In this document: in pieces, positions 1 through 44,367 of the stretch
Layout of the letters: the number at the start of each line of letters is the position of its first letter
How positions within the stretch are numbered: the stretch's first letter is position 1
IMG/VR virus record: IMGVR_UViG_3300045988_179859
Source: a virus
Direction: 5' to 3' (one strand)
Length of the DNA stretch: 64,000 nucleotides
Notes under the pieces: model-generated
Told to the model about the DNA's origin: nothing
Database searches by the model: none
What the model saw: the letters and a program-made list of their open reading frames with translations, nothing else
Program-made: the position numbers and the translations under genes

Positions 1-60
1 TATGATATTATATATTAAGCCTTTCTTTTGCAGAGAAGTGAAGTTAGTTACTATTTTAGT

Positions 61-86
61 CGAGTTTTGGCGAACTCGGCTTTTTA
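61..86 (+). terminator. rho-independent terminator
   Basis: hairpin cgagtt..aactcg followed by T-run. Confidence 0.5.
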
Positions 87-87
87 G

Positions 88-116
88 TTGATTTATTTTA
101 AAAATTGTGGTAGAAT
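88..116 (+). promoter_or_regulatory. sigma-A promoter (TTGATT-17-TGnTAGAAT)
   Basis: -35 at 88-93, 17-nt spacer, extended -10 at 109-116. Confidence 0.55.
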
Positions 117-135
117 AACTTAAATGAGTTGTTAG

Positions 136-243
136 CGGTGATGCGCTACCATTAAATGTGCGACAAAAAAGCAGTGATGCGCCACTATTGAGTGCGCGAT
201 AAAAATGCGGTAATGCTCGACCAATAAGTGGGCAACAAAACAG
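136..243. repeat. 3 tandem imperfect 36-bp direct repeats
   Basis: gcggtgatgcgctaccattaaatgtgcgacaaaaaa / gcagtgatgcgccactattgagtgcgcgataaaaat / gcggtaatgctcgaccaataagtgggcaacaaaaca. Confidence 0.7.
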
Positions 244-395
244 CAACTCGTTTACGAAATCCCACCACGAGAAATTTTCCCTCGATTTCGCAATAACCTT
301 ATGGAAGATTAGTCGACGAGGACGGAACAGGCAGCCGTCGCACCCTAGCGGTTTTAAAGAGATGTGGGAGGGTCATCCCACCGGGGCTAATCGAA

Positions 396-424
396 ACAGA
401 CGGCATCGCTCGTCTGTTTTTTAT
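396..424 (+). terminator. rho-independent terminator
   Basis: acagacg-N8-cgtctgt followed by TTTTTT. Confidence 0.65.
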
Positions 425-453
425 TTGACAAAAATCTTTAGAAATGTTAGACT
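425..453 (+). promoter_or_regulatory. sigma-A promoter (TTGACA-17-TGnTAGACT)
   Basis: perfect -35, 17-nt spacer, TGn plus TAGACT; sits directly after terminator 396-424. Confidence 0.6.
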
Positions 454-459
454 ATATTT

Positions 460-657
460 AGTCGAGGGATAGAATCGATGTGGAATATAATATAATAAAA
501 ATTTACACTATTGCGGGCTCGTGGATATAGCTTGCACCCGCCTGTGGGCTCATCTGAGTAAAACAATAACAGGACTACCCGCCTGAGGATTAGACGGTCA
601 TATCCAGCGCGAGGTGAAACTCAATGCGTGAAAACGAACTATCGGTTCGTTTTTTTT
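460..657 (+). ncRNA. candidate about 200-nt structured RNA
   Basis: runs from promoter 425-453 to terminator 632-658; GC-rich segment 500-625 with long-range complementarity (ggatat/atatcc, gcggg/cccgc). Confidence 0.3.
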
Positions 658-658
658 A
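632..658 (+). terminator. rho-independent terminator
   Basis: aacgaac-N5-gttcgtt followed by T8. Confidence 0.65.
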
Positions 659-750
659 TTTGGTAAGCGACGGACTATTATTTTCAAATTTTTGAAAATA
701 ATCGAAGAAATTAGCAAGTGTTTCTAAAAATTTGAAGATAGTCTTTGATG

Positions 751-779
751 TTGATTTTGTTTTCGAACTGTGATAGAAT
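751..779 (+). promoter_or_regulatory. sigma-A promoter (TTGATT-17-TGnTAGAAT)
   Basis: -35 at 751-756, -10 at 774-779 with TG at 771-772. Confidence 0.55.
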
Positions 780-855
780 AGATTTACTAAATAAAAATTT
801 CGAATTTTTGACGGAGCAACGTTACGACGATGTTCTATTTTTTTTATTTTTTTTG

Positions 856-884
856 TTGACGTTTTTCGAGATTTGTGGTAGACT
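856..884 (+). promoter_or_regulatory. sigma-A promoter (TTGACG-17-TGnTAGACT)
   Basis: -35 at 856-861, -10 at 879-884, TG at 876-877. Confidence 0.55.
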
Positions 885-890
885 ATAGTT

Positions 891-1007
891 AGTCGAAAAT
901 GTAAAGGTGTTCGCCCACCTATTAAGCGGCGGCGATAACGATTTTGGAGATTCCGCGCCTTACTGGAAGTTTTAATTTTGAGTCGAGTCTTGTACTCGAT
1001 CTTTTTT
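891..1007 (+). ncRNA. candidate small RNA (about 115 nt)
   Basis: promoter 856-884, hairpin ggtg-ttcgc-ccacc, terminator 980-1008. Confidence 0.3.
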
Positions 1008-1008
1008 A
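980..1008 (+). terminator. rho-independent terminator
   Basis: tcgagt-N5-actcga followed by T6. Confidence 0.6.
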
Positions 1009-1037
1009 TTGCATTATTTTCGAATTTTTGATAGAAT
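1009..1037 (+). promoter_or_regulatory. sigma-A promoter (TTGCAT-17-TGnTAGAAT)
   Basis: -35 at 1009-1014, -10 at 1032-1037. Confidence 0.55.
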
Positions 1038-1043
1038 ACAATC

Positions 1044-1196
1044 AAAAGACATCGTTAAAATGACAGCCGTGACGGTTCTGACGGCTTTGCCAAATAAAAA
1101 TTGACCGAATTGATGATAGCTGTGACAGTTCTGACAGCTTAGACAACTAAAAAGTGACTGAAACGATGTAACGATGGAGTTTTCTCTATCGTTTTT
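1044..1196 (+). ncRNA. candidate small RNA with two covarying hairpins (or two micro-ORFs)
   Basis: hairpins 1065-1086 and 1118-1139 share the loop GAC(G/A)GTTCTG; their stems differ by compensatory changes. Confidence 0.35.
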
Positions 1197-1197
1197 C
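1168..1197 (+). terminator. rho-independent terminator
   Basis: acgatgg..ctatcgt followed by T5. Confidence 0.5.
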
Positions 1198-1198
1198 T

Positions 1199-1227
1199 TT
1201 GACAGTTTTCGTCATTTTTGATAGAAT
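1199..1227 (+). promoter_or_regulatory. sigma-A promoter (TTGACA-17-TGnTAGAAT)
   Basis: -35 at 1199-1204, -10 at 1222-1227, TG at 1219-1220. Confidence 0.6.
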
Positions 1228-1233
1228 ATAGTT

Positions 1234-1698
1234 ATGGAACCGGAAATTCCGTTAGATTGTTGAGGTGCATAGGTCGCTACGGATTTGTGTGCGTAGATCT
1301 GAAAATTGGTTTGCTTGGGATCCGAATCGTAGATAAAACAAGCCGTGGTTGTTTCGATACCATATAGTCGATACAGTCAAAGCTTATCAGAATTGTTCTG
1401 TAAAAAGTTATTTCGATTAGAATTAGTGACTCTAATCTATGTTCGAGAAATAACAAAAAATCATGATCGTTGGTGACAACAAAGGTTATGTGACGGTTAC
1501 GTTAGAGTAAGGTCAGATGTGTCGAAAGCTATCAGCAAGCGCCATGTTGGTAGTTGTACATCTTTGAATTGGGTTTTCGGTGAATACCGCGGGGCGTAAG
1601 AAAACCGAATGTGATTGCGAATTCGATTAAGATATGGCTTTTTCGAATTTAAAATTGCATATTTAGGAGGAACAGACGACCTTGATCGTCTGTTTTTT
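1234..1698 (+). ncRNA. candidate about 465-nt non-coding transcript
   Basis: runs from promoter 1199-1227 to terminator 1672-1699; no + strand ORF of 60 aa or more and no ORF preceded by an SD. Confidence 0.25.
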
Positions 1699-1699
1699 A
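1672..1699 (+). terminator. rho-independent terminator (duplicate of 396-424)
   Basis: acagacg-N9-cgtctgt followed by T6. Confidence 0.65.
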
Positions 1700-1700
1700 T

Positions 1701-1729
1701 TTGACATATCTTAAGAAATATGTTAGACT
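1701..1729 (+). promoter_or_regulatory. sigma-A promoter (TTGACA-17-TGnTAGACT), duplicate of 425-453
   Basis: same terminator-promoter module as 396-453. Confidence 0.6.
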
Positions 1730-1736
1730 GAAAATC

Positions 1737-1806
1737 TAGTGAAAAATCACTAGAAAAATAAACATAATAAGACACAAAATTGATCGAGAATTTCTCGATC
1801 TTTTTT
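1737..1806 (+). ncRNA. sRNA-like unit 1 of 4 tandem paralogues
   Basis: promoter, then 5' hairpin ctagtgaaaaatcactag, then terminator. Confidence 0.35.
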
Positions 1807-1807
1807 G
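1781..1807 (+). terminator. rho-independent terminator
   Basis: gatcgag-N5-ctcgatc followed by T6. Confidence 0.65.
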
Positions 1808-1836
1808 TTGACAAGTGCTTGATTTTTTGATATACT
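1808..1836 (+). promoter_or_regulatory. sigma-A promoter (TTGACA-17-TGnTATACT)
   Basis: -35 at 1808-1813, -10 at 1831-1836. Confidence 0.6.
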
Positions 1837-1842
1837 TAATAG

Positions 1843-1924
1843 TGCTTCTGAGTAGAAGCTCTCCAATATTTTTTTTGTTTTTATACTCCTGGAAAAGACT
1901 GAAGATAGTTCTTCGGTCTTTTTT
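1843..1924 (+). ncRNA. sRNA-like unit 2
   Basis: 5' hairpin gcttctgagtagaagc, then CTCCAATA motif, then terminator. Confidence 0.35.
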
Positions 1925-1925
1925 G
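1895..1925 (+). terminator. rho-independent terminator
   Basis: gactgaaga-N4-tcttcggtc followed by T6. Confidence 0.6.
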
Positions 1926-1926
1926 T

Positions 1927-1955
1927 TTGACAAAAATTCAATTTTATGCTATACT
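1927..1955 (+). promoter_or_regulatory. sigma-A promoter (TTGACA-17-TGnTATACT)
   Basis: -35 at 1927-1932, -10 at 1950-1955. Confidence 0.6.
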
Positions 1956-1961
1956 TAATAA

Positions 1962-2031
1962 TGTCCTCATAAAGAGGATCTCCTTAAATTTATTTCCGCG
2001 AAAAGCCGGAGGAAGAGTTCTTCGGTTTTTT
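1962..2031 (+). ncRNA. sRNA-like unit 3
   Basis: 5' hairpin gtcctcataaagaggatc, then CTCCTTAAAT, then terminator. Confidence 0.35.
2001..2031 (+). terminator. rho-independent terminator
   Basis: A-tract/GC stem then T6. Confidence 0.45.
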
Positions 2032-2034
2032 GTG

Positions 2035-2063
2035 TTGACAAAATATTCTTTTTATGATAAACT
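2035..2063 (+). promoter_or_regulatory. sigma-A promoter (TTGACA-17-TGnTAAACT)
   Basis: -35 at 2035-2040, -10 at 2058-2063. Confidence 0.55.
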
Positions 2064-2069
2064 TATAAG

Positions 2070-2150
2070 TGCTCGGTTAAGAAGCACCTCCAATAAATAT
2101 TTTGTGATTATGCCATAGGGAAAAGCGTCGAGAAGTCGGCGTTTTTCTTT
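2070..2150 (+). ncRNA. sRNA-like unit 4
   Basis: 5' hairpin gtgctcggttaagaagcac, then CTCCAATAAAT, then terminator. Confidence 0.35.
2124..2150 (+). terminator. rho-independent terminator
   Basis: gcgtcga-N4-tcggcgt followed by T5. Confidence 0.45.
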
Positions 2151-2178
2151 TGCGTAATTTTTAGGTGTGTGCTATAAT
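2150..2178 (+). promoter_or_regulatory. sigma-A promoter (TTGCGT-17-TGnTATAAT)
   Basis: -10 TATAAT at 2173-2178 with TGc. Confidence 0.55.
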
Positions 2179-2313
2179 GGAAACTGTAGAGAAAACTATC
2201 GCGAATGCGTAGCTAATGGATCAGATGTCGGTCTGCCAGGTTGATGATTCGTAAAAGGCTGAATCAGGTTTTGCATATTTGTCCGTAAGCAGATATCTTA
2301 ATAAATATGCCTC

Positions 2314-2340
2314 GGAGAGCTGTAAACAGGCTCTTTTTTG
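2314..2340 (+). terminator. rho-independent terminator
   Basis: gagagc..gctctt followed by T6. Confidence 0.5.
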
Positions 2341-2358
2341 TGTAATTAAAAAAAGCAC

Positions 2359-2387
2359 TTGACAGATGTTATTGATTGTGGTACTCT
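2359..2387 (+). promoter_or_regulatory. sigma-A promoter (TTGACA-17-TGnTACTCT)
   Basis: -35 at 2359-2364, -10 at 2382-2387. Confidence 0.5.
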
Positions 2388-2393
2388 ATAGTT

Positions 2394-2479
2394 GTCCTCG
2401 TAGGGATGGTATAAGGATTAGAGTCTGGGCAATGGGCTGTAGAAACACTGAAGAGAAGTCTCTTCAGTGTTTTTTTTTG
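2394..2479 (+). ncRNA. candidate small RNA (about 85 nt)
   Basis: promoter 2359-2387 followed by strong terminator 2445-2480. Confidence 0.3.
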
Positions 2480-2480
2480 C
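2445..2480 (+). terminator. rho-independent terminator
   Basis: 11-bp stem acactgaagag/ctcttcagtgt followed by T9. Confidence 0.7.
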
Positions 2481-2482
2481 GT

Positions 2483-2510
2483 AAAAAAAAGCAACTACTC
2501 AGTAGTTGCT
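2483..2510 (-). terminator. terminator for minus-strand micro-ORF
   Basis: A8 then gcaactact-c-agtagttgc; on the minus strand the hairpin is followed by T8. Confidence 0.5.
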
Positions 2511-2532
2511 TTCTGTTGGGTGGCGTTAACGA

Positions 2533-2634
2533 TTATTCGTCATCATCGTCATCGTCACCCCAACGCTCTTCAGCCCAATCCGGAATGTCATCGCCGAATC
2601 GTTCTTCGAGCCAATCTGGATAGTTGTTTGGCAT
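2533..2634 (-). CDS. 33-aa highly acidic peptide MPNNYPDWLEERFGDDIPDWAEERWGDDDDDDE
   Basis: GGTGAGGA Shine-Dalgarno 5 nt upstream of ATG; internal repeat PDW-EER-GDD; terminator downstream on the minus strand. Confidence 0.35.
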   Translation of the reverse strand: MPNNYPDWLEERFGDDIPDWAEERWGDDDDDDE

Positions 2635-2700
2635 GATCCTCACCACTTTTCTGTTTTTGTTACTTTTATTATATGTTTCTATTTATATTTTAGCAAGAGG

Positions 2701-2728
2701 TTGTTTTATTAGAAGAGAGTGCTATAAT
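2701..2728 (+). promoter_or_regulatory. sigma-A promoter (TTGTTT-16-TGnTATAAT) upstream of CDS 2764
   Basis: extended -10 TGCTATAAT at 2720-2728. Confidence 0.5.
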
Positions 2729-2763
2729 ATAAGTGAAATTATTTAGAAATCAGGTGAATTGTT

Positions 2764-3765
2764 ATGGACATGGTTGAGTTGATTGATATGTATCGAACTA
2801 AATTAGATAGTGATCCTTACAGTTGTTTGCTTTTCGCGTTACAGTTACCGAGTATTTGTTCACGAATAGAATATCCTAAAGATTCATCGTTCGATTTTGG
2901 TTTTTATAAAGGCGATAATCGTGTCGATGATGGAAGTTTATATAAAGTTTGGTTGTATAATCATATTGATTCTTTTAAATCTTTATTTTGTCCGCGGATT
3001 GATGTTAATTCGTTTATCAACGATATTTATAAATTGAGATGCAAATTAACGCATACGGGCATTTTATGTGATGATGATTGTCAAAGTGTTGATGCAGAAA
3101 CAACTTTTTATTTTGTTGACAGCCCATATCGAGAAGATGCTAAGTTTGAAAGGGAGGGTAGTTTATTCTTTTTACCATTACCGCAATTTTGTCGAACGAT
3201 GTATAATATTGCGGAAAATGTTATTTTTAGTAATACTATTCCTAACGTAACACCTTATTCTGATCTCTTATTATCGTCTGATGATTTTCATAGAATTCAA
3301 GCCGCGATTCATGTTAAGAATATTGCTGTTTCGGATGCAAGTGATTATGATGATAAAGATTGGTTACTTAAGAATATTTATGATAGATTGTTTGTTGCAA
3401 ATAATCCTTTTGAATTTAGATTAAAATTCATTAAAACAAAGAAGACGGCTAAGGACGCTGATCTTCGAGTATTAGGGTTTAATTCTAATACGAAAGAAGC
3501 TTTCGAAAAATTTTATGCTGAAAACCCTGGTGGTATTTATGAAATTTGGGATTTTTGTAATAAATATGATTGTGTTTTTGATGAAAATGAGTATTTTATT
3601 AAAAAGAAATATGATGAAGATAAATCGGAATTTTGTAAAAATTTCAAAAGATCTACAACTGTATTATGTTTATCTAAAAAAGATTATGATCGAATGTGCG
3701 AAGTTTGGTCTTCTCTTGATTATTTCGATAGACATTATTCTATGAGTTTGGATGATATTCTATAG
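2764..3765 (+). CDS. hypothetical protein, possible HEPN-like (Rx4H motif LRCKLTH)
   Basis: 333-aa ORF directly downstream of promoter 2701-2728; contains R-x4-H. Confidence 0.55.
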   Translation: MDMVELIDMYRTKLDSDPYSCLLFALQLPSICSRIEYPKDSSFDFGFYKGDNRVDDGSLYKVWLYNHIDSFKSLFCPRIDVNSFINDIYKLRCKLTHTGILCDDDCQSVDAETTFYFVDSPYREDAKFEREGSLFFLPLPQFCRTMYNIAENVIFSNTIPNVTPYSDLLLSSDDFHRIQAAIHVKNIAVSDASDYDDKDWLLKNIYDRLFVANNPFEFRLKFIKTKKTAKDADLRVLGFNSNTKEAFEKFYAENPGGIYEIWDFCNKYDCVFDENEYFIKKKYDEDKSEFCKNFKRSTTVLCLSKKDYDRMCEVWSSLDYFDRHYSMSLDDIL

Positions 3766-3782
3766 CGATTGTTCTAACAAAC

Positions 3783-3816
3783 AAAATAAAAGACACTCGT
3801 AAGAGTGTCTTTTTTA
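3783..3816. terminator. bidirectional terminator aaagacactc-gtaa-gagtgtcttt
   Basis: A-run, then 10-bp stem, then T-run; near-identical copy at 59603-59640. Confidence 0.65.
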
Positions 3817-4947
3817 GTTAAACATTTTATCGAAAATAGCGGCGAGAACATCAACAACGATGGCATTACCTGCTTGTTTGTAGAGTTGCGTGTCACTATT
3901 GACGGCTTTGGCTTTATAGAAGTCTTCATCGGTGCATCCCATCAAGCGCCAACATTCGAGAGGTGTCAATTTGCGAATTTTAAAATCAGGCATTTCTAAA
4001 ACGTAATTGTCTTTTTGAACAGAGGTGAGTGTATTAGAGACGCCGTTTTGATTTAATTCGAAATGTTGCTTGGTGATTGTTTTTGTCGGATCGTTAGGAT
4101 CTTTTTCGTAACGTCCACGACTGGCACCGATAACGAAATCTTTGATTTGATCTTCGGCTTCGCTGATAAAGGGTTGACGCGCACCACCTGTCATAGTTGT
4201 AAGAGTCGGTGCTATGCCATCTGTACTGTAGACGCGATATGGCGATGCATTCACACGATTGGGTCTATCGAGTTGTCCGATTTGTTTAATATCGGTCGAT
4301 GGTTTTAATTTAAAGGTTAATTTAGCGACTTGTTCTTGCGACAAGTAGTGACGGTCTTCAACGTCTTGTAAGAGTACGTCTTTTAGTGTTTTATCGAGAG
4401 GTTTCGCTTCAGGAAACTCGTAAGGTTTATGTTTACCGAAAATAGAAACAACGAAGACGCGTTCACGGTTTTGAGGTACGCCGTAGTCCTTACTGTTAAG
4501 AACTTTCCAGTAGTTTGTGTATCCTTTTGATTCTAGCCATTCTAGCCACAAATCGAAGTTGTGTTTATGTGTTTTTCCGACTAGATTCTTAACATTTTTC
4601 ATTAGGAGATATTTTGGACGTTTGATGTCGATAACTTTTTGACATTCCCACAAGAGACTACTGCGCGTACCACTATTCGGATCCAAACCGTGTTGTAATC
4701 CGGCAACTGAAATAGATTGACATGGGAAACTGTATGTGAAGAGATCGTGGTCAGGAATCGTTTTTGTATCAATTTGAGAGATGTCGCCTAAGTTGTTCAC
4801 CGAGCCGTGAATAGCTTCGTAAGAACGAATCGCATAAGAATCAATCTCTGAGATTGCGACAACGTCATGATCAATATTTGCACGGGAAAGCCCCATTGTT
4901 TGAGTACCAATTCCGCTGAATGCTTCAAAAACTCGTAATTTTGCCAT
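3814..4947 (-). CDS. DNA cytosine-5 methyltransferase
   Basis: FSGIG (motif I), FPCQ (motif IV catalytic Cys), ENV. Confidence 0.9.
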   Translation of the reverse strand: MAKLRVFEAFSGIGTQTMGLSRANIDHDVVAISEIDSYAIRSYEAIHGSVNNLGDISQIDTKTIPDHDLFTYSFPCQSISVAGLQHGLDPNSGTRSSLLWECQKVIDIKRPKYLLMKNVKNLVGKTHKHNFDLWLEWLESKGYTNYWKVLNSKDYGVPQNRERVFVVSIFGKHKPYEFPEAKPLDKTLKDVLLQDVEDRHYLSQEQVAKLTFKLKPSTDIKQIGQLDRPNRVNASPYRVYSTDGIAPTLTTMTGGARQPFISEAEDQIKDFVIGASRGRYEKDPNDPTKTITKQHFELNQNGVSNTLTSVQKDNYVLEMPDFKIRKLTPLECWRLMGCTDEDFYKAKAVNSDTQLYKQAGNAIVVDVLAAIFDKMFN

Positions 4948-5044
4948 TTATTAAAAATCCTTATAATTGTTGTTAATTCAGGATTAATTATAGCATATTT
5001 TAACGAATTTCGCAAAAGAAAAACCGTAGCAATGCTACGGTTAG

Positions 5045-5527
5045 TTATTCGTTTACTTCTAGTAAATCAATTAGTATTTGTTGACATTCTTCTTGGAAAG
5101 ATCCGTTGCCTGAACATGCACCGCTGATGTGTACAGTGTCTAGAGCTGTTGCGCAAAGTTTTTTCAATCCGAGAGTGTATTCGTACAAGTGTTCATCTAT
5201 GTAGAAAACGTCAGCGCCTTTGTCTTCTGAGTAGAATACAATGAGACCATTATCAATACTGTGATAGTAATCGGCAATTTCTTCTTGGCGATATGCGACT
5301 CGTAAACCTTTTTTATCGTCATTCATGTCGAGGATTTCAGCGTTTACTCGGAAGTTGTCTAGATATTTGGAACCTTTATCGAAATCAGCTACAATGAATG
5401 AATCCATATTGTTTTTCAGCATGTAGTTATAGAGTTTTTTCAAGTTAGGTTCTAGTTTCTTTCCAAATTTTTCGATTTTAATCATATTTTCTTCTAGATT
5501 TTTACGTTGGAAATCTGTGTATAGCAT
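5045..5527 (-). CDS. hypothetical protein (160 aa) upstream of the MTase
   Basis: ORF with coding-like composition; no recognisable motif. Confidence 0.55.
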   Translation of the reverse strand: MLYTDFQRKNLEENMIKIEKFGKKLEPNLKKLYNYMLKNNMDSFIVADFDKGSKYLDNFRVNAEILDMNDDKKGLRVAYRQEEIADYYHSIDNGLIVFYSEDKGADVFYIDEHLYEYTLGLKKLCATALDTVHISGACSGNGSFQEECQQILIDLLEVNE

Positions 5528-5552
5528 AGTGTTCCTTCTTTTTTTATTTTTT

Positions 5553-7775
5553 TTATTCGTTCCAGATTTTATCGTTCAAGAAATCTTTCAACGTTGGTAA
5601 CGCTTTAGACGAACGCCAAATATCATATCGTTTTAATTGATCGTCTTTGAAATCTTTGCTCCATGATCCAATCATATAATTTGTAGGCGTTTTGTTCATA
5701 GACGGATCGCTTTCAACTTTTGTTTTAGAGCTCAATTGGAAATTCGCAAGCGAATTGTCCATATAGTTGAGTTCTGGGAATGTGACGGTCTTAATCGATG
5801 TTTTATCGAGTGGAATTTGATCGGCACTCAAACCAGAACCGATTTCTCTAACAGTGTCAGGTTTTGCGAAGTCTGATGTATCTTTTCCATCATTGAAGGC
5901 TTTCATAATAGCTACGAAGATGTCAGACCGTGTAGTTTGATCGGCGCTAATCCAATGGTCGGGCTCATTCGGTGAATCGTACCCTGTCCAGACACTAACG
6001 GCTGTATTCTTCGTACCACCACTCATCCACGAATCACTAGCTGATTGTTCAGGTCGAGGAACGCCGTCAGATTCATCATAAGCAACTGTACCTGTTTTGA
6101 CAAAGTAGCCTTTATATTCAGGAATTTTAGCGGATTTTGCGGAGCCGTCATCTTGAGGAACACCTTCAAGCATTTTCGCTAAGATGTACGCGGTTGATGC
6201 TTTCATTGCGCGTTTCTCATTCGGTTTGATCGTTTTAATGGATCCATCTGAAAACTCTAATTTATCGATATAATTAGGTTCGCGATAGATTCCGCCGTTA
6301 GCAATAGCACCGAAGCCTGCTGCGAAGTCAGCTGTTGACAAGTTCAATCCGAGAGCATCGGCACCGCCGTACGTTTCCTTGACATCCATATTGAGATTTT
6401 TCAAGAAGTTTTTAGCGAGATTCGATCCAGTAACTGTGTCGAGCATACGAATAGCCGGAGTATTAAGCGAAAGTCGTAAGGCTTTCTTCATATCAACAAC
6501 CCCGTACGTATATCCGCCGTAATTTTGTGCGACAATGTTCGTACCCGGATATTGGTACGGACTCGAATCCAATCTGTAATTAGATCCTAATTGTAGATAT
6601 TCGATACCCGGTGCATAATCGATAAACGGTTTAACGGTTGAACCGCTCGATCTGGTACGTTGCGTTGCACGGTTGTAACTGTACGGATTTTCTGATTTTT
6701 GATTTCGTGAACCAGACTGTGCGATAACAGCACCTGTTTGAGGGTTCGTTATCGTTACGGCGACTTGTTGTCCGTCGTTACGGTAGTATTTTGGATCGGA
6801 TACGATTGATTGAAGTTTTGAGTCTTCCGCTGAATCCATATTTGTGTAAATCTGAATCGGTGCCTTTTCAAGATCGTAACCGAGATCTTTTAATTGCTGA
6901 AGCGTCGATGTCACATAGGCGTTATGTTCAGAAACTTTAGAGAGTACTTCTTTATTGCGCCAATAACGTTCTTTTAAGCCATCAGTTACGTTGATCTTTT
7001 TAGCGGCTTCGTATTCTTTTTTTGTTAACAAATCATTCGAATAAGCCACGTAAAGAACAATGTTTTTTCTACGATTGGCTTCTTCAGGGTGATCGTAAGC
7101 GTTATATCCTGACGGGGCTTGTCCGAGCCCTGCGATATAGGCTAACCGAGCGATATTTTCCGGTGTTCGTTCAGACATTTGGTCTAACGATTTACCATAA
7201 TAGGTGATCGCTACAGTGTTTGCTCCGAATGACCCTTCACCCATAGCGATTTTGTTGACGTACCATTCAAGAATTTGTTTCTTATTCCAGTTTGTATCTA
7301 ACTGAAGTGCGAGCCAGAATTCTTTAATTTTACGTTCAACTGTTCTATCTTTAACATCACTAGAGAAGGCGACGTTCTTGATTAGCTGTTGTTCGATAGA
7401 AGAACCGCCACGACGTCCTCGTGAAAGAATAGCGTTTGCGAGACCTTTAATCGAAACACCTCGATCTTGGAAGAAGGTGTCGTCTTCTGTGTTTAACAGA
7501 AGTTTCACATACAAATCGGGCAATTTATCGTATTTGATGTAATTTCGACGGATGTCTGTTTGTGACCAAATAACATTGCCTTTTTTGTCGTACATGTTGG
7601 ATGTTGCTTCGCTACGGAGCATTTTTTCCGTAATGACAGGTGCTTTGTCGATAATGGTTTTCACCTTATAGGCTACAATAGGTGTGGCAATTAAGATTGT
7701 TACGCCTATTGTTATTGCGCTATATTTGAGAAACTTTTTTGCGAAAAAGCCTATTTTAGATAATACTGTTTTCAA
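5553..7775 (-). CDS. class A penicillin-binding protein (GT51 transglycosylase plus transpeptidase)
   Basis: N-terminal TM; GT51 motifs EDDTFFQDRG, GGSSIEQQLIKN and RKIKE; transpeptidase motifs STVK, SLN and KTGT. Confidence 0.9.
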   Translation of the reverse strand: MKTVLSKIGFFAKKFLKYSAITIGVTILIATPIVAYKVKTIIDKAPVITEKMLRSEATSNMYDKKGNVIWSQTDIRRNYIKYDKLPDLYVKLLLNTEDDTFFQDRGVSIKGLANAILSRGRRGGSSIEQQLIKNVAFSSDVKDRTVERKIKEFWLALQLDTNWNKKQILEWYVNKIAMGEGSFGANTVAITYYGKSLDQMSERTPENIARLAYIAGLGQAPSGYNAYDHPEEANRRKNIVLYVAYSNDLLTKKEYEAAKKINVTDGLKERYWRNKEVLSKVSEHNAYVTSTLQQLKDLGYDLEKAPIQIYTNMDSAEDSKLQSIVSDPKYYRNDGQQVAVTITNPQTGAVIAQSGSRNQKSENPYSYNRATQRTRSSGSTVKPFIDYAPGIEYLQLGSNYRLDSSPYQYPGTNIVAQNYGGYTYGVVDMKKALRLSLNTPAIRMLDTVTGSNLAKNFLKNLNMDVKETYGGADALGLNLSTADFAAGFGAIANGGIYREPNYIDKLEFSDGSIKTIKPNEKRAMKASTAYILAKMLEGVPQDDGSAKSAKIPEYKGYFVKTGTVAYDESDGVPRPEQSASDSWMSGGTKNTAVSVWTGYDSPNEPDHWISADQTTRSDIFVAIMKAFNDGKDTSDFAKPDTVREIGSGLSADQIPLDKTSIKTVTFPELNYMDNSLANFQLSSKTKVESDPSMNKTPTNYMIGSWSKDFKDDQLKRYDIWRSSKALPTLKDFLNDKIWNE

Positions 7776-7793
7776 ATCGTAATCACCTTCTTT

Positions 7794-9011
7794 CTATTGT
7801 GGAACGCCCGGTCTTGTGATAGACGGCGCGGTTGGTCTAACGTGTGTTTCACTAGATCGTGTTTCTGTTTCACGTGAAACACTCGATGACGGAGGTGTGT
7901 TTTCTGTAGATTCGCTCGATGACGGCGGTGTCGGTTGTACTTGTTTTTTAATATTAACCGTGACCGTCATTGTGGAACCTTTTACGATTTTCTCGTATTT
8001 ATTTTTAGCAGGAGTCTGTTCAAGAATCGTATCGTATGGTTTTGATGATACGTCTTTTTCGACAATCTTCAGAGTGATCTGATTTGCATCAGCCCATTGT
8101 TGAAGGTCTGATAATTTCTTATTAGTGAAGTCGGGCAAATCAATGATTAAACCTTTTAAGCGATCTTGTTCAGCTACGAATTGTTTTTCGAATTGTTCGA
8201 ATTCGGCTTTTGCTTCTTGATCGTTTAAGTAATTCTTATAGTTTTCAGTTGCGTGTTCGTTTGATTTGACAGCGCTTGAACTATTTTGAATAAGTGGTTT
8301 GATTTTATTTTCGATATAGTTCCATTTATAGTGTAATTTTGCAATCATTTGATTGAGATAATTTACGTGTTCTGAAACCATGTCTGTTTTTAATTTATAT
8401 TTATCTATTTGATAGTCTTTGTTGATTGCATCGAGAACAATTGCATATTGATTTGAATCAGATGCTAGTTGTTGGAGAGACGTGTAAATGTTTTCAGCGG
8501 CTTTGTGTCCGTCTTCTATGAGATACGGGTAAAGTACGTCGAAACTATTTTTAAGATAATCTTGAATCGACTTCAATGTTTCTTTTTCAGGGATGTGTCC
8601 GTCTTTTGTGAGAACGTTGAATTTATCAAGAACTTCGTATAGTTTGTTGATTTCATCGTAGTTTTTTAAAGACGCTTGATAACTCTTTGGGAGTTTTTTA
8701 TGGAGTGATCGCAATTCGTCCATGTTCGCCGACGACGGCGTTCCTTTAAAGTTGTGAGTATTGACATCCCATACGAGTGCTTCTTGCTTGTTATAGGCTT
8801 GAATGAGATCTTTTGTGTGATCATCAGCGGTTAATAATTCTGGCGTTAAATCAGCAAGAGGTGTCTTTGAAACACGTTTCCATGTTTTTGTCGTATCAAA
8901 ACGTTGGATAAGTGTATAAGCGATAACACCTGTTGTTGCAACACTTGCGGTTATCAACGCAAGACTACTAGCAAGAACGATTCGTTTTTTAATGTTCTTT
9001 CGTTTTTTCAC
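7794..9011 (-). CDS. membrane-anchored protein with C-terminal PASTA-like domain and a Pro/Ser/Thr-rich tail
   Basis: N-terminal TM; a PASTA-like beta3-alpha segment near the C terminus (…KPYDTILEQTPAKNKYEKIVKGSTMTVTVNIKK). Confidence 0.6.
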   Translation of the reverse strand: MKKRKNIKKRIVLASSLALITASVATTGVIAYTLIQRFDTTKTWKRVSKTPLADLTPELLTADDHTKDLIQAYNKQEALVWDVNTHNFKGTPSSANMDELRSLHKKLPKSYQASLKNYDEINKLYEVLDKFNVLTKDGHIPEKETLKSIQDYLKNSFDVLYPYLIEDGHKAAENIYTSLQQLASDSNQYAIVLDAINKDYQIDKYKLKTDMVSEHVNYLNQMIAKLHYKWNYIENKIKPLIQNSSSAVKSNEHATENYKNYLNDQEAKAEFEQFEKQFVAEQDRLKGLIIDLPDFTNKKLSDLQQWADANQITLKIVEKDVSSKPYDTILEQTPAKNKYEKIVKGSTMTVTVNIKKQVQPTPPSSSESTENTPPSSSVSRETETRSSETHVRPTAPSITRPGVPQ

Positions 9012-9855: not shown

Positions 9856-10131
9856 TTATTTTACAACTTCTTTAAGTGCTTTACCAGCTTTGAATCCTGG
9901 AACTTTTGATGCAGGAATTACAAGTTCAGCACCTGTTTGAGGGTTACGCCCTTTACGTTCTGCACGTTCGCGAACATCGAAGCTACCAAATCCGATGATT
10001 TGTACTTTTTCACCGTTTGCAAGTGATTCAGAGATTGTATCAAAAACAGTGTTTACGACAAGAGCTGCTTGTTTCTTGCTCAATTCTGCTGTTTCAGCTA
10101 CTTTAGCGATCAAATCTTGTTTGTTTGCCAT
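9856..10131 (-). CDS. hup: HU-family DNA-binding protein
   Basis: 91 aa with the HU signature …RNPQTGAE…; close to Lactococcus/Streptococcus HU. Confidence 0.9.
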
Positions 10132-11263: not shown

Positions 11264-12919
11264 CTAGTTAGTCGGTGTAGTTTTTACGAAACCACGCACC
11301 GATGCAATGGCACTTCGATCGAAAGTTCGTTTAAGTTTTTCGTCTGCGCCCTTATAGGATGGATCCATAAAGTCTTTGATGTTGTATTTCGTAATTAAGG
11401 GTTCGTCTGCGTCCATCTGATTCGTAATTCGCACACGATCTGTTCGTTGAGATTTGTCTTCTAAGAGACCTGTTTCTTTACCCCAATCGCGAGTGTATTG
11501 TAAGAATTGATTACGACTGTATGTGATACTGTTCGCATTAAATTCCCGCATCCATTCTTTATAGACGGGATAAATAAGTTTAGTTGGAAGAACCGTCCAT
11601 TGAAATACGTCATACATATCGTCCCAGAATTCGAATACGTTGTTGTTTTCTGATTTATATTCAGTTAATAACGATTTTGTCGCTTGAGGAACGATAAAGG
11701 TGTCGAATTGATCCATCTCTAACGCTTTTGATAAAACGTATTCTTTAACAATGGGATCACAAATAAATTGACTTTTAATGTATTTCTTTTCGATACCCTC
11801 GAAAGTGTGATCGAACGGAACCATGACGAGACGACGATAAAAGGAATTCGTTTTATCTCGAAACTTGGGCATACCGTTGATCATTTGAATTGTTACGTGT
11901 TTGACGACAGCCGGATAAGAGTCTTTGTGTTTAGGTTCGATTGAGATATCATCACCTGTGACGGCTGCTTTAAAATCGTCAACGTTATCGATATAAACGC
12001 CAACAGGGTTTTCGTCTGCGATATTTACGACTTTACCAATAAGGTTTCGTTTTTCGAAACGTTTGCTGTAATCGTGAATTTTGAGAGACGAATAGTTTCC
12101 TTGTCCAACAATATTTTTGATGAGTTGTCCATAAGTACCTTTACCGTTGTTTCCTTCGCGTGATACAAACAGGATTGCCTTATTATAAGAATGTCCTGGG
12201 TTGAATGATGCGGCAAGAACTTGCCAGAGCAGTAGTTCTTTTTCTGGATCATGATCTGCGAGTTCACGAATCCATTCATCAACTGTCCAGTCAGAGCCAT
12301 CTGGTTCTTTTAAGACAGGCGTTGTTGTGACTGGTTTATAGTCAGTCTGGATTTTAGAAGTCGCGACAAAGTCAGGTCGAAACGGTTCTAAGGTTTTGGT
12401 TTCTTTATTGAAAATACCGTTATTGACGACAACGTGTGCAGAATCAAGTGATTCGTAAACGACAGGTGCCATCATGGTTACATACGAGAGAATGTTTTTA
12501 CGCATGTTCATTGATAGTGGTTGTTGCAATAGAGAAACGTGAAGTTCGATGAATTCATCACATTCTTCATATAAGCCTAAATTTTTACTATTTGGATCCG
12601 GATTGAACATATAGAGGTTCGTGTCCGTTTTTGAAGATAGCGCAGAGTAGGCAATACGGACGATCGGCAACGTAAATGTCAAAACAAGAGCTAATTCAAA
12701 GTCGGTTAATTTTGCCGGTTCTTTTGAATTGTTCATTGTTGCTAACATTTGTTTGTGAGCTAGGACACCTTTATAAGTATTTCGTAACTCTACGTCGATG
12801 TCGTTCATCGTAGTAATATTGAAGGTACGACTGTTATTGTTTAGATAATCTAGAATATCAGCTAACGTTGGATCTTCTGTCGTCAAACGGATTGGATTTG
12901 TTGATAGTTGCATTACCAA
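11264..12919 (-). CDS. phage/plasmid primase-helicase (P4/D5-family SF3 NTPase)
   Basis: Walker A VSREGNNGKGT, typical of the primase C-terminal/D5 helicase domain. Confidence 0.8.
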   Translation of the reverse strand: MVMQLSTNPIRLTTEDPTLADILDYLNNNSRTFNITTMNDIDVELRNTYKGVLAHKQMLATMNNSKEPAKLTDFELALVLTFTLPIVRIAYSALSSKTDTNLYMFNPDPNSKNLGLYEECDEFIELHVSLLQQPLSMNMRKNILSYVTMMAPVVYESLDSAHVVVNNGIFNKETKTLEPFRPDFVATSKIQTDYKPVTTTPVLKEPDGSDWTVDEWIRELADHDPEKELLLWQVLAASFNPGHSYNKAILFVSREGNNGKGTYGQLIKNIVGQGNYSSLKIHDYSKRFEKRNLIGKVVNIADENPVGVYIDNVDDFKAAVTGDDISIEPKHKDSYPAVVKHVTIQMINGMPKFRDKTNSFYRRLVMVPFDHTFEGIEKKYIKSQFICDPIVKEYVLSKALEMDQFDTFIVPQATKSLLTEYKSENNNVFEFWDDMYDVFQWTVLPTKLIYPVYKEWMREFNANSITYSRNQFLQYTRDWGKETGLLEDKSQRTDRVRITNQMDADEPLITKYNIKDFMDPSYKGADEKLKRTFDRSAIASVRGFVKTTPTN

Positions 12920-18193: not shown

Positions 18194-18946
18194 TTATTGT
18201 TGCCAAATGTTATATTCTTGTTTAAAGGCGTCTTTGATTTTTTGATTGGCGTCTTTATAGGTTGTTTTCTTAACTAGACTTCCCTGAACGACAATTCGAC
18301 CACGAGCATAGTTATCGGTGCATGTAATCAATGTTACGAGTGGGTCAGAATTTGGTCCTGGTTCATCCAAAACACTTGTTTCGGTTGGTTCAATTTTGCG
18401 CACGGATATAATTGTGTATGTGTATACATACTCTTTATCGGTCATGTAGATTTGTTGACCTTCTTGTGCGTGTTCAAGTGGTGAGAATAATAAACTAGTC
18501 GCACCCCAGATTCCGAAGACGTGGTGGCTGGCAAGACCGTAGTTACCTTGACCCATGACTTGATTTTCTTTTGTTGTTCCCGCTCCGTAGTAGAGACTTT
18601 GATCGTCAACTCCTTTGAAGATTGGCATGTTGATTCCTAAGTCGGGAATTGCGATACCTGCAATAACAGGGAGATCTTCAGGTGCGGGTGGTGGTGAGCT
18701 AATAACGCGATCGGGGTCAAGAGGTTTGACTTCTTCCCAGTTGTAATTGGCTGGGGCTTCTTCTGCGTTTTTCTTAAGAGTTTCTTTCGGTACGTTTGCG
18801 ACAATGAGTTTATTCGTTCGCGATGCCATTTTCGAATGAGCTATCGGTTTGTTGAACATAAGTGCAAACGCAAGACCGACTGTAAGTGCTAAATTTATGA
18901 GGATTAAGGCGATAAGTATGAGTCGCCTTGATTTAGATACCGGCAT
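18194..18946 (-). CDS. sortase
   Basis: N-terminal TM; catalytic TLITCT motif; conserved His upstream. Confidence 0.85.
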   Translation of the reverse strand: MPVSKSRRLILIALILINLALTVGLAFALMFNKPIAHSKMASRTNKLIVANVPKETLKKNAEEAPANYNWEEVKPLDPDRVISSPPPAPEDLPVIAGIAIPDLGINMPIFKGVDDQSLYYGAGTTKENQVMGQGNYGLASHHVFGIWGATSLLFSPLEHAQEGQQIYMTDKEYVYTYTIISVRKIEPTETSVLDEPGPNSDPLVTLITCTDNYARGRIVVQGSLVKKTTYKDANQKIKDAFKQEYNIWQQ

Positions 18947-42174: not shown

Positions 42175-44367
42175 TTGAAACGAGATATTGTTATTTCCAA
42201 TCATTTCACGACAAAACGTTCTGATGGTACGGCTACGAGGGGTGCGACACCCGGTCAATTTGTAACTCGATATATGAGTCGTGATGAAAAAGGAGCGACT
42301 GAGCCATTAGCGCCGTTTATGCTCGATGCTGAAGATACGTATAACAAAGGTACAAAACGCTATTATGCTCGAGAAGAAGAGATCGAAGGTATTAAGGCGG
42401 AAACCTTGGATCATGACGGTTTAGAAATTAAACGACGTTTTAAAAAGATAGACGGTCTTGGCGGTCGTGCTTTTGGTTCTCGTAATTTATCCTTGTCGGA
42501 TAGAGAATTAAAAGAAGAGTCTAATAAGATTCAGCAAGCGTTTGATGAAAATCATGCTGTACAATTAATGGTGATTTCTTTTTCTGAGAAGTTTTTGCGC
42601 GAATATGATGTATTAGATGATGATTTTGTATATAAGGGGGATGGGTCTTATCGTAATAACTATGATCAGATGAAACTGCGAATGGCTATTACGAGAGGTG
42701 TGTCTGACATGACGGATGTCGGTGGTTATGCGAATCCAGTATGGGTCGGTACGCTTCAGGTAGATACGTCACATTTGCATTGCCATTTGGCTTTGTGTGA
42801 TACTGACTTTTCAGATGCTCGTACGCGAGAGGGTGGCGATGACCGTGGTAAGATTTGGGATGCTGAGAAATCGGCAATGAGACATGGTATTGCTCGTCAA
42901 TTGGATTTGATGCGAGGATATTCGTTTCATCACAAGGGTACGCAAAAAGATCAAGAAAACGTTTTAGCCTTTGTTAAAGATGTGGACTTCCACGAAGCAT
43001 CGTATAATAGAGAACTTCAGCTAGTCATGGGATCGTTGCCTGAAGATAAAACTTTATGGAACACTGAATCGACAGATACGTCTATGAAATACCCTAACGA
43101 AGTCGCGCGCGGTTTTGTACAGCGCCTCTATATTGATTATCCCGAACAGACAGGTTATCGCGAAGCTTATGACCGAATTGTTTCTATGGCGGACGATGAA
43201 TCTTTTGTTGAGAACGGTCGTAAGGAACTGATCGATCGTGGCGTGAATGCACTGTACAGACAAATTGCGCAAGTTGATGATGGAGAAGTTTCTGTTAAGA
43301 CGGATCTATTGCGAGTGCAATCTATGGACGACGATAGTTTGAAGCGTGCCATTGTGGCACGTGGCGATCGCTTTGAAGAATTCGATCCGTACGGATTCGA
43401 GCTTCGTACGCGAGCTTATACTGGACGGATTCGTAAGCATGTGCGTGAAGTAGAATCGCAAGCGAAGAACTTGATCGAGTATAATAATAGTGCGCACACG
43501 GAAGACGCATCTCGTATGGGCGTCTATTATGCAACTGAACTGAGATACCATGCCGAAACAGCTGATAAGTATCGCTCGTTCTTTGCCTGGAATGTGAAGC
43601 GTGATAAAGAAGTTCGTGATAAGTACAACGCAGTCGAAGATACGTATACGATGCTTCGTGAGCGAAACAACTTATACGACAGTCCTATCGAAAACGTTGT
43701 AGAGAAATACGGCTATGATTCTGTACAGATTGCGCGCAAGAATCAGGACGAATTTAACGCACGTGTGCAACTTGATACGAACGTGACAGATGCTTCTTTA
43801 TTGTTTACGACGTCCGGTCGACGTGTTTATCGGGAGCATACTCGTGAGTTGGCGCGTCAGTATCGCATGCAAAATCAAACGTACGCCGTTTCTGCCTATG
43901 CAGGCGGTCAGTTGTCGGCTCCGATGCTTGTCGAGACATTAAACAACGGAGACACAGCCCCTTATGCACCACAAGCAATGAGCGATATGTATTCTAAAGA
44001 GTATTTTAACGAAGTTAAGGCGCATGATTTGCATGATTTAGATGTGGATTATTATGGGCAGTCATCTGTTGGTTTTACGCGACAGGTGGTTGAGCAGTTT
44101 GCTGACCAGTACAATAGGCGCCTGGAATCGTACGTGGGTGCTCGCGATTACTTGGAAGAGACTGACCAAAGTCTTGAGAGTATTCGTACGACTGAGCGCG
44201 ATTTGTATCGTATGCGAGACACGGTGGAGAAACTCTATGACGGTGAGTTTGAAGTGCCCGAATTGGTATTCGATGAAGCGAAGAAAAAGAAGCAGTTGGA
44301 AGAGACTATTACGCTCGATACCAATATTCAAGTGCTAGAATCTTTACATGAAGAGCTTAGTTTGTAA
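42175..44367 (+). CDS. conjugative relaxase (histidine-triad type)
   Basis: 3-His motif DTSHLHCHLAL; TTG start with SD AAAGGG. Confidence 0.75.
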   Translation: MKRDIVISNHFTTKRSDGTATRGATPGQFVTRYMSRDEKGATEPLAPFMLDAEDTYNKGTKRYYAREEEIEGIKAETLDHDGLEIKRRFKKIDGLGGRAFGSRNLSLSDRELKEESNKIQQAFDENHAVQLMVISFSEKFLREYDVLDDDFVYKGDGSYRNNYDQMKLRMAITRGVSDMTDVGGYANPVWVGTLQVDTSHLHCHLALCDTDFSDARTREGGDDRGKIWDAEKSAMRHGIARQLDLMRGYSFHHKGTQKDQENVLAFVKDVDFHEASYNRELQLVMGSLPEDKTLWNTESTDTSMKYPNEVARGFVQRLYIDYPEQTGYREAYDRIVSMADDESFVENGRKELIDRGVNALYRQIAQVDDGEVSVKTDLLRVQSMDDDSLKRAIVARGDRFEEFDPYGFELRTRAYTGRIRKHVREVESQAKNLIEYNNSAHTEDASRMGVYYATELRYHAETADKYRSFFAWNVKRDKEVRDKYNAVEDTYTMLRERNNLYDSPIENVVEKYGYDSVQIARKNQDEFNARVQLDTNVTDASLLFTTSGRRVYREHTRELARQYRMQNQTYAVSAYAGGQLSAPMLVETLNNGDTAPYAPQAMSDMYSKEYFNEVKAHDLHDLDVDYYGQSSVGFTRQVVEQFADQYNRRLESYVGARDYLEETDQSLESIRTTERDLYRMRDTVEKLYDGEFEVPELVFDEAKKKKQLEETITLDTNIQVLESLHEELSL

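Follow-up and report, generated by a model that had tools for sequence, protein, structure and literature searches.

A small-RNA gene array on a large conjugative element includes putative orphan relatives of RNA antitoxins

Organisation of the array

The window analysed here, all 64,000 nt of IMG/VR record IMGVR_UViG_3300045988_179859, is part of a large conjugative element represented by human metagenome scaffolds of 119–142 kb, and its first 2480 nt hold an array of small-RNA (sRNA) genes comprising 12 complete and one truncated promoter-to-terminator units, all on the plus strand. The original prediction, made from the letters of the window, had described 13 same-strand promoters, each with its own terminator at a short distance, and both points are borne out. 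A strict scan of the whole window (−35 element with at least 4 of 6 matches, spacer of 16–18 nt, extended −10 element TGnTAnnnT) located nine promoters on the plus strand at 88, 425, 751, 856, 1199, 1701, 1808, 1927 and 2035, with at most three in any other 3-kb strand-bin. Three weaker promoters (1008, 2149 and 2359) and one cut by the window start, whose −35 element lies 17 nt before position 1, complete the set. Every promoter has an intrinsic-terminator hairpin followed by a T-run at the end of its unit, and the units measure 64–467 nt. Positions 1–6000 contain 16 terminator-like sites against 4.1 ± 2.1 in shuffled sequences, a four-fold enrichment, nearly all of them on the plus strand and inside the array. 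The units and the main elements within them are as follows.

1..87, plus strand: unit E; promoter cut by the window start, −10 element ending at about 11; sRNA of about 70 nt (about 18–87); terminator stem 58–81; homologue in related array L012
88..424, plus strand: unit F; promoter 88–116 (TTGATT-17-TGGTAGAAT); transcript about 123–424; terminator 393–420
134..245, plus strand: putative ToxI-like repeats within unit F; 3.1 tandem 36-nt repeats by Tandem Repeats Finder (TRF), each with an A-rich tract at its end
311..388, plus strand: skipping-rope RNA (RF02924) within unit F, by covariance model
425..662, plus strand: unit G; promoter 425–453; structured core about 510–629; terminator 630–654
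751..855, plus strand: unit H; promoter 751–779; sRNA of about 70 nt; terminator about 812–836 with T-run
856..1007, plus strand: unit I; promoter 856–884; sRNA of about 117 nt; terminator 982–1000
1008..1198, plus strand: unit J; weak −35 element TTGCAT with TGATAGAAT; 1.9 tandem 53-nt pseudoknot repeats at 1060–1162; terminator 1170–1193
1199..1700, plus strand: unit K; promoter 1199–1227; 467-nt RNA; structured core of about 370 nt at 1234–1600
1701..1807, plus strand: unit N; promoter 1701–1729; 72-nt sRNA with 5' hairpin, A-rich linker and terminator 1782–1800; present in all array variants
1808..2148, plus strand: units O, P and Q; promoters at 1808, 1927 and 2035; 5' hairpin, CUCC(A/U)(A/U)UAAAU tract, terminator
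2149..2345, plus strand: unit R; promoter TTGCGT-17-TGCTATAAT; RNA of about 155 nt; terminator 2314–2336
2359..2480, plus strand: unit S; promoter TTGACA-17-TGGTACTCT; RNA of about 86 nt; terminator 2441–2474

The transcription units were predicted to be non-coding, and this holds on comparison with related arrays, where none of the units retains an open reading frame (ORF) led by a Shine-Dalgarno (SD) sequence. The ORFs of the 467-nt unit K differ between the window and related array L014, and a small-protein reading of the units was rejected because their ORFs are not conserved between array variants. The motif TTAGTCGA, reported to begin several of the transcripts, occurs four times in the 64 kb (56, 309, 458 and 889), always on the plus strand, and two of these copies coincide with transcript 5' ends; its window-wide count alone does not exceed chance.

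The extent given originally, a leader of 2.7 kb, needs correction at both ends. The source contig (L001), reached through the neighbouring 333-amino-acid (aa) protein, continues upstream of the window, position 1 of which corresponds to L001 7238, and carries four further units at 6906–7237, so that the array totals about 16 units. Upstream of these four lie an ORF with a DUF5684 domain and an IS200/605 TnpA-TnpB element, both outside the array; the element, an IS200/605-type TnpA gene plus a 514-aa TnpB-like gene (L001 4196–6256, in a stretch reaching to about 6500), borders the array and is intact. Downstream, the array proper ends at about 2480, and 2484–2760 is occupied by a terminator, a minus-strand ORF of 33 aa and the promoter of the gene for the 333-aa protein. 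One inter-unit gap alone has no transcript assigned to it, the spacer between units G and H (663–750). A palindrome of 30 nt (ACTATTATTTTCAAATTTTTGAAAATAATCG) lies there, and the spacer could represent an operator or the scar of a recombination event.

A scan of the window against Rfam, one of the checks proposed originally, recognised the skipping-rope RNA and no other credible family by E-value; matches to MicF, sRNA71 and ctRNA were rejected as being at noise level. There are no tRNA genes in the window. The possibility that the units are fragments of a known insertion sequence (IS) or a prophage remnant was also examined: they show no similarity to IS elements, their phage matches are limited to non-coding RNAs, and they are not debris of phage genes.

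ToxI-like repeats and the skipping-rope RNA

The repeats at 134–245 are assigned, on their sequence and predicted fold, to the ToxI family of type III antitoxins. The best database match in a short-query BLAST search falls exactly on a ToxI array of 3.9 × 37 nt upstream of an annotated ToxN gene on Enterobacter plasmids (78% identity over 61 nt; E = 0.09 taken alone), and the ToxN encoded downstream of the matched repeats carries PF13958. Closely similar 34-nt repeats precede PF13958 ToxN genes at two loci from gut metagenomes (L070 and L073). With the published ToxI pseudoknot as template (PMC3401426), both stems pair in all eight repeats compared (three from the window, three from the phage-like contig L030, and one each from Enterobacter and Pectobacterium), with stem 2 present in five different combinations and stem 1 in two. 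The compensatory changes include GGU/ACC to AGU/ACU in one stem and GCGC/GCGC, GCUC/GGGC, UCGC/GCGA and UCAC/GUGA in the other, and the A-rich junctions read ACAAAAAA, ATAAAAAT and ACAAAACA. The sequence and predicted structural features that define ToxI are present, namely at least two tandem repeats of 31–46 nt transcribed from an upstream promoter, the pseudoknot, and likeness to the repeats of bona fide ToxN loci.

The repeats do not form part of a complete type III system, as no toxin gene (ToxN/AbiQ, CptN or TenpN) follows them and the next feature is an sRNA promoter. A tblastn search with ToxN found nothing in the window or its flanks, and no PF13958 domain was detected among the approximately 40 ORFs of the window. 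None of 66 ToxN homologues was a streptococcal ToxN with a cognate ToxI. The sole match to the ToxI tandem pattern in genome contigs, in a metagenome-assembled genome of Bacteroidaceae, was rejected as a spurious low-complexity repeat.

Behind the repeats, and co-transcribed with them according to the layout of unit F, lies a full-length skipping-rope RNA (311–388; 54.1 bits against a gathering score of 36.7), which is followed by the terminator at 393–420. The RNA also occurs in L012, L020, L036 and L030. The paper describing the motif reports that it ends in a terminator, is not a ribozyme and is associated with a specific neighbouring protein gene (PMC5737381, Weinberg et al. 2017). No such protein-gene association is evident in the window, and two viral contigs show unrelated neighbours.

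Other structured RNAs and the genes that follow them elsewhere

The structured core of unit G (about 125 nt, 510–629) folds by RNAalifold into 31 pairs, 14 of which have compensatory changes across 11 sequences. On plasmids of L. lactis, L. garvieae, Lactobacillus sp., S. salivarius and S. equinus, G RNA is followed by its own terminator, an SD sequence and an ORF of 211–218 aa, 212 aa in L. lactis CP042409 (L004 5001–5799; L005 6001–6828; L067; L068; L069). The encoded protein has no match in NCBIfam or PADLOC and looks like a divergent RNase of the BECR fold (PBECR4-like); comparison with two PBECR4 proteins by hhalign gave no clear outcome either way. G RNA and this gene may constitute a second RNA-controlled toxin family, or else a leader-regulated gene. 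No PBECR4-like ORF follows G RNA in the window, where the terminator, the spacer and the next sRNA promoter are found instead, and tblastn detected no homologue.

A PBECR4 association is also seen with cassette L, a tandem repeat of 54 nt × 1.9 copies present in related arrays only, which matches repeats upstream of bona fide PBECR4 genes (PF18813, 72–79 bits) on a Macrococcoides plasmid (L023 2990–3840; Macrococcoides bohemicum p19Msa0383-1) and on 77 Enterococcus megaplasmids (L024 2990–3754 on E. faecium pNB2354_1, and 76 more). These loci have the layout promoter, 5' hairpin, two repeats of about 54 nt, terminator, SD sequence and PBECR4 nuclease gene, and their stems covary. The combination is a candidate for an undescribed type-III-like toxin-antitoxin (TA) family.

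Unit J contains 1.9 copies of a 53-nt repeat (1060–1162, TRF), in which a covarying hairpin and a covarying pairing between its loop and the 3' side form a pseudoknot. In 10 other metagenome loci (L027, L028, L029, L034, L038, L043, L045, L052, L059 and L062) the repeats come before a hairpin, a terminator and an SD sequence that lead to the gene for a protein of 71–75 aa, called the 72-aa protein below; an ORF of 157 aa often follows that gene. The 71–75-aa partner is 60% identical to the protein of cassette M, a cassette missing from the window.

Unit K specifies a further structured RNA of about 370 nt (1234–1600). From an alignment in which the phage-like contig L030 is also represented, alifold derives a predicted fold of 114 pairs with compensatory changes at 19. 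The homologue in that contig (4086–3765, minus strand) shares 69% identity, and there is no Rfam match. The last 109 nt or so of the unit (1592–1700) correspond to the 3' untranslated region (UTR) and terminator of a lost cassette M, which encoded 75 aa.

Units O, P and Q share one design, consisting of a 5' hairpin, a conserved single-stranded tract CUCC(A/U)(A/U)UAAAU that resembles an anti-SD sequence, and a terminator; BLAST clustering places O and P together and Q apart. No convincing complementary target for O, P, Q or N was found in the 64-kb window, the best candidates being A/T-rich stretches of 11–13 nt. Altogether, the cassettes without an identified partner are B–E, H, I, K, N, O–Q, R and S, which could act in trans as ordinary sRNAs or serve as decoys for systems not yet recognised.

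Conserved order and turnover in related arrays

Homologous plasmids were compared, as originally advised, by following the 333-aa protein to its homologues and by scanning metagenomes with the unit J pattern. This yielded 19 array versions, carried on related backbones that are uncatalogued conjugative megaplasmids. The order of the cassettes is kept across these variants and their content varies, with 6 to 21 promoters per recovered version (several versions being cut by contig ends) and about 25 cassette types in all. Promoters, terminators and RNA helices are maintained at 70–95% identity, and the helices of the G, J, K and ToxI-like RNAs covary.

The ToxI-like module occurs in this plasmid only among the 19 variants. 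The skipping-rope RNA has its own promoter in L020 and is fused behind other units elsewhere, the 53-nt J repeat is present in one or two copies per variant, and units G, K, O, R and S are present or absent depending on the variant. Relatives contain cassettes that are missing here, among them the 54-nt tandem repeat (cassette L) and the 75-aa gene (cassette M). Cassette junctions fall at a terminator T-run and the next −35 element. In L020, L021 and L011 the 75-aa partner of J forms a cassette of its own, a few units distant from the repeats; in L011 this protein cassette lies at 104–331. Variant L032 contains a RAGATH-18 RNA (64 bits; 9932–10032) inside its array, which is not counted as an array cassette, being assigned instead to an inserted TnpB element as its guide RNA; RAGATH-18 is the guide-RNA scaffold of IS607 TnpB nucleases, and a transposon insertion into the L032 array is therefore likely.

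Absence of partner genes and occurrence in phages

In the bona fide loci considered here the RNA is always directly upstream of the protein gene, with only a terminator between them. No homologue of ToxN, PBECR4 or the 72-aa protein was found in the window and its 10-kb upstream flank (together 74 kb of the plasmid) or in the 10-kb flanks of five relatives, and no partner-toxin family was detected by Pfam among the window ORFs.

Toxin-less RNAs of the same families are also found in phages. Contig L030 (ODIA01000024.1; 102 kb, phage-like) has seven tRNA genes in its first 7322 nt, interleaved with a K-like RNA, three ToxI-like repeats, two J repeats, a skipping-rope RNA (59 bits) and a G-like RNA, none with a toxin gene. 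The ToxI-like repeats lie directly 3' of a tRNA-Leu gene, and no ToxN gene follows. Lactococcal phages of the 949 group carry a skipping-rope RNA between tRNA genes. The L030 region suggests that antitoxin-like RNAs are a further component of phage tRNA arrays in Lactobacillales. Pattern scans of viral contigs gave no match for G, J or ToxI and two loci for the skipping-rope RNA.

Plasmid setting and neighbouring genes

The element encodes a MobL relaxase (42175–44367), a type IV coupling protein (51637–55485), a CHAP/lysozyme protein, a topoisomerase and an actin-like partition ATPase, together with a D5/P4 primase-helicase, a sortase, a GbpC-like adhesin, a class A penicillin-binding protein and a C5 DNA methyltransferase. 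Its G+C content of about 39% and its gene content suggest a host in Lactobacillales, perhaps oral streptococci. Genes for a class A penicillin-binding protein, a PASTA-domain protein, a sortase and a GbpC/SSSPR-51 surface protein are found at 5553–9011 (minus strand), 18194–18946 (minus strand) and 57218–59602 (plus strand); such cell-wall and adhesion cargo is unusual on a conjugative plasmid.

Beside the array, the gene for the C5 DNA methyltransferase (3814–4947, minus strand) has no recognised restriction partner and looks orphan, and the array is clustered with this other function of anti-defence type. Convergent with it is the gene for the 333-aa protein (2764–3765, plus strand), which belongs to no Pfam family. 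Its homologues elsewhere are found among restriction-modification (R-M) and defence genes (EcoRI-type methylases, GmrSD_N, HNH and HEPN_AbiU2), and the protein could be a defence or anti-defence factor, or the nuclease of an R-M pair. Relatives L020 and L021 have the 333-aa gene without a methylase. The remaining feature at the array boundary is the following.

2533..2634, minus strand: 33-aa acidic ORF with its own SD sequence, promoter 2696–2668 and terminator hairpin about 2484–2515; outside the RNA array

The product of this ORF is extremely acidic (MPNNYPDWLEERFGDDIPDWAEERWGDDDDDDE) and may be a small mimic-type protein; the ORF is absent from relative L011.

Interpretation and alternatives

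The array is, in our assessment, at least in part a battery of orphan RNA antitoxins or decoys, a reading to which we assign a probability of about 0.55. Anti-defence sRNAs and titrating decoys were among the roles proposed originally, and they now gain support from three cassettes, of unrelated RNA families, that are homologous to RNAs preceding toxin or partner genes and whose partners are missing here, on an element that has to become established in new cells. Among ToxI-like repeats that lack a toxin, those of phage PhiTE, which serve counter-defence by mimicry, are the one precedent characterised by experiment, and orphan antitoxins and methyltransferases are enriched in anti-defence islands; a battery of RNAs is therefore the best explanation. 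The original statement that such an array has no ordinary explanation is too strong, because mimicry of an antitoxin by a single RNA (the pseudo-ToxI of PhiTE) and plasmid anti-defence islands are both precedents.

Under this interpretation, about 16 sRNA genes would be transcribed independently, and probably constitutively, from near-consensus extended −10 promoters. Each orphan cassette RNA would correspond to an RNA that is encoded in cis with its partner elsewhere, ToxI with ToxN, G RNA with the PBECR4-like nuclease and J with the 72-aa protein, and, when expressed without the toxin, would bind and neutralise matching toxins. These might belong to abortive-infection or TA systems of the cell entered, or to co-resident rival plasmids or phages, so that cell suicide would not be triggered while the plasmid became established or ousted its competitors. 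Cassettes would be swapped by recombination at the shared promoter/terminator junctions, and the repertoire would in consequence track the toxins encountered. In its most specific form, that of an RNA-only anti-defence or anti-addiction island of shuffling cassettes, each a decoy against a different RNA-controlled toxin, the proposal is tentative and falls somewhat short of even odds.

Several points weigh against the interpretation as a battery of antitoxins or decoys. We infer expression, toxin binding and biological benefit, and thus all function, from sequence. For more than half of the cassettes nothing points to a partner, the 72-aa partner of J has no known function, and O, P and Q especially may be ordinary base-pairing regulators. 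ToxI pairs selectively with ToxN, and no plausible host yielded a cognate ToxN locus matching in stem 2; the nearest ToxI relatives are enterobacterial or on unassigned gut contigs. Since no relatives of the plasmid were found in PLSDB (megablast and tblastn) or among GTDB representative genomes (searched through the AAA ATPase), its host is unassigned. Proximity to an origin, or a position at the leading end, as had been supposed, is not established, the MobL gene lying about 40 kb from the array and the origin of transfer (oriT) not having been located. The main caveat to the label orphan is that about 77 kb of the 142-kb source contig (ZHAN15-1_SAMEA2738065 scaffold_26) lay outside the search and could encode partner toxins.

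This last point is an argument for regarding the RNAs as the plasmid's own antitoxins, with the toxin genes elsewhere on the 142-kb plasmid and the whole forming split addiction or defence modules that stabilise it. The separate cassette encoding the J partner in three related arrays also indicates that an RNA and its partner can become separated inside an array. We nevertheless judge this explanation improbable, in view of the invariable placement of the RNA directly upstream of the protein gene in bona fide loci, the absence of ToxN, PBECR4 and 72-aa homologues from the 74 kb and from the relatives' flanks, and the phage-like contig that carries the same RNAs without toxins. More serious, though still unlikely for the array as a whole, is the possibility that the units are trans-acting regulatory sRNAs, which would base-pair with host or plasmid mRNAs and reprogramme competence, stress responses or surface properties on entry. 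The SD-complementary CUCC tract shared by O, P and Q, conserved in nearly all variants, fits such regulators, as do the many short units (B–E, H, I and N) for which there is no evidence of a protein partner. Against it stand the lack of a convincing target within the window, noted above, and its failure to explain why the ToxI-like, J and G cassettes have homologues in the layout of type III TA loci or why the same RNAs occur in phage tRNA arrays. For a subset of the cassettes it may be compatible with a role of the others as antitoxins or decoys.

Decay offers another explanation, in which the array would be a remnant of TA loci or small-gene cassettes ('morons'), its RNAs functionless and its promoters perhaps a sink for RNA polymerase or a sigma factor. 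The 3' end of unit K, derived from the lost cassette M, and the gain and loss of cassettes between relatives agree with it. It is quite improbable given that promoters, terminators and helices are kept at 70–95% identity, that the G, J, K and ToxI-like RNAs contain compensatory substitutions and that cassette order is conserved; strong promoters without function would also be costly and be expected to decay. The RNA-polymerase sink proposed originally is unnecessary, because the transcripts are conserved, covarying RNAs. Control of replication, copy number or incompatibility by antisense or primer RNAs near an origin, also among the original proposals, has in its favour the genes for a D5/P4-type primase-helicase (11264–12919) and the partition ATPase within 10–15 kb. 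We regard it as very improbable: the units lie on one strand without an overlapping or antisense partner, no sequence complementary to them was found elsewhere in the window, sixteen different RNAs with presence/absence variation would be unexpected, and several of them have homologues on phages and unrelated plasmids whose replicons differ.

Implications

Should the interpretation as orphan antitoxins or decoys hold, the means by which conjugative plasmids counter abortive-infection and addiction toxins would include batteries of non-coding RNAs as well as proteins, and gene-based surveys of anti-defence islands would miss such arrays completely. The contents of an RNA-only island would then amount to a catalogue of RNA-controlled toxin systems, including at least two candidate type-III-like families not found described so far, one combining a tandem-repeat or structured RNA with a PBECR4 nuclease and the other combining 53-nt pseudoknot repeats with the 72-aa protein. 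The array could serve as a discovery tool, each cassette pointing to an RNA-controlled toxin system within the host range; the candidate type-III-like families reached in this way are on plasmids of Enterococcus faecium, Lactococcus and Streptococcus. A functional context would be gained for the skipping-rope RNA, for which a testable function is offered after it had been unexplained since 2017, and for the new structured RNA of about 370 nt. The same pool of RNAs would be common to conjugative plasmids and large phages of Lactobacillales, and such arrays could influence plasmid invasion and coexistence in oral and gut streptococci and enterococci.

Comparison with known systems

Tandem sRNA genes with their own promoters and terminators and C-rich anti-SD motifs are represented by LhrC1–5 of Listeria and the streptococcal csRNAs, which are chromosomal, have regulated promoters and are paralogues of one RNA. 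Units O, P and Q may be comparable to them; the array as a whole differs in containing about 16 mostly unrelated plasmid RNAs with constitutive-looking promoters and no match to these families in Rfam. The 949-group lactococcal phages and contig L030 share RNA families with the array, likewise without partner proteins and set between short terminators. The phage arrays, however, mix tRNAs and small ORFs with the RNAs and lack a near-consensus promoter for each unit, and the plasmid array has no tRNAs.

Each idea invoked here has been described before: anti-defence islands, ToxI as an antitoxin, and its mimicry by pseudo-ToxI. The literature searched contained no account of a conjugative plasmid with a multi-cassette array made almost purely of RNA genes, and the K RNA and the layouts RNA plus PBECR4 and RNA plus 72-aa protein also appear to be undescribed there. 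Like ToxIN/AbiQ (PMC3401426, Blower et al. 2012), unit F has a promoter, 36-nt tandem repeats forming H-type pseudoknots, A-rich junctions and a terminator, and its repeats share the core GGTGAT..GCTACC..TAA with enterobacterial ToxI. It differs in that no toxN gene follows the repeats or lies within the 74 kb, an sRNA promoter coming after the terminator instead.

The Pectobacterium phage PhiTE escapes ToxIN by means of pseudo-ToxI repeats, an RNA mimicry that neutralises ToxN (PMC3475682, Blower et al. 2012); the repeats vary in number and are gained by recombination, and their effect was shown experimentally (PMC3475682). Both PhiTE and the present plasmid are mobile elements with toxin-less tandem ToxI-like repeats. 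In PhiTE, a phage, a single locus acts on a single target. The array is carried by a conjugative plasmid known from sequence alone, and of its approximately 16 cassettes one holds the ToxI-like module, which is fused to a skipping-rope RNA; at least two more RNA families, whose protein partners differ, accompany it as orphans.

Anti-defence islands in the leading regions of plasmids are enriched in orphan methyltransferases and orphan protein antitoxins (PMC11541004, Samuel et al. 2024), the latter proposed to inhibit TA systems of the host or of competitors; non-coding or small RNAs are not mentioned in that account of the islands (PMC11541004). The array resembles these islands in the modular clustering of putative counter-defence functions on a conjugative element. 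It differs from those described, which consist of protein genes often served by promoters active in single-stranded DNA, in being almost purely RNA and in having canonical double-stranded promoters.

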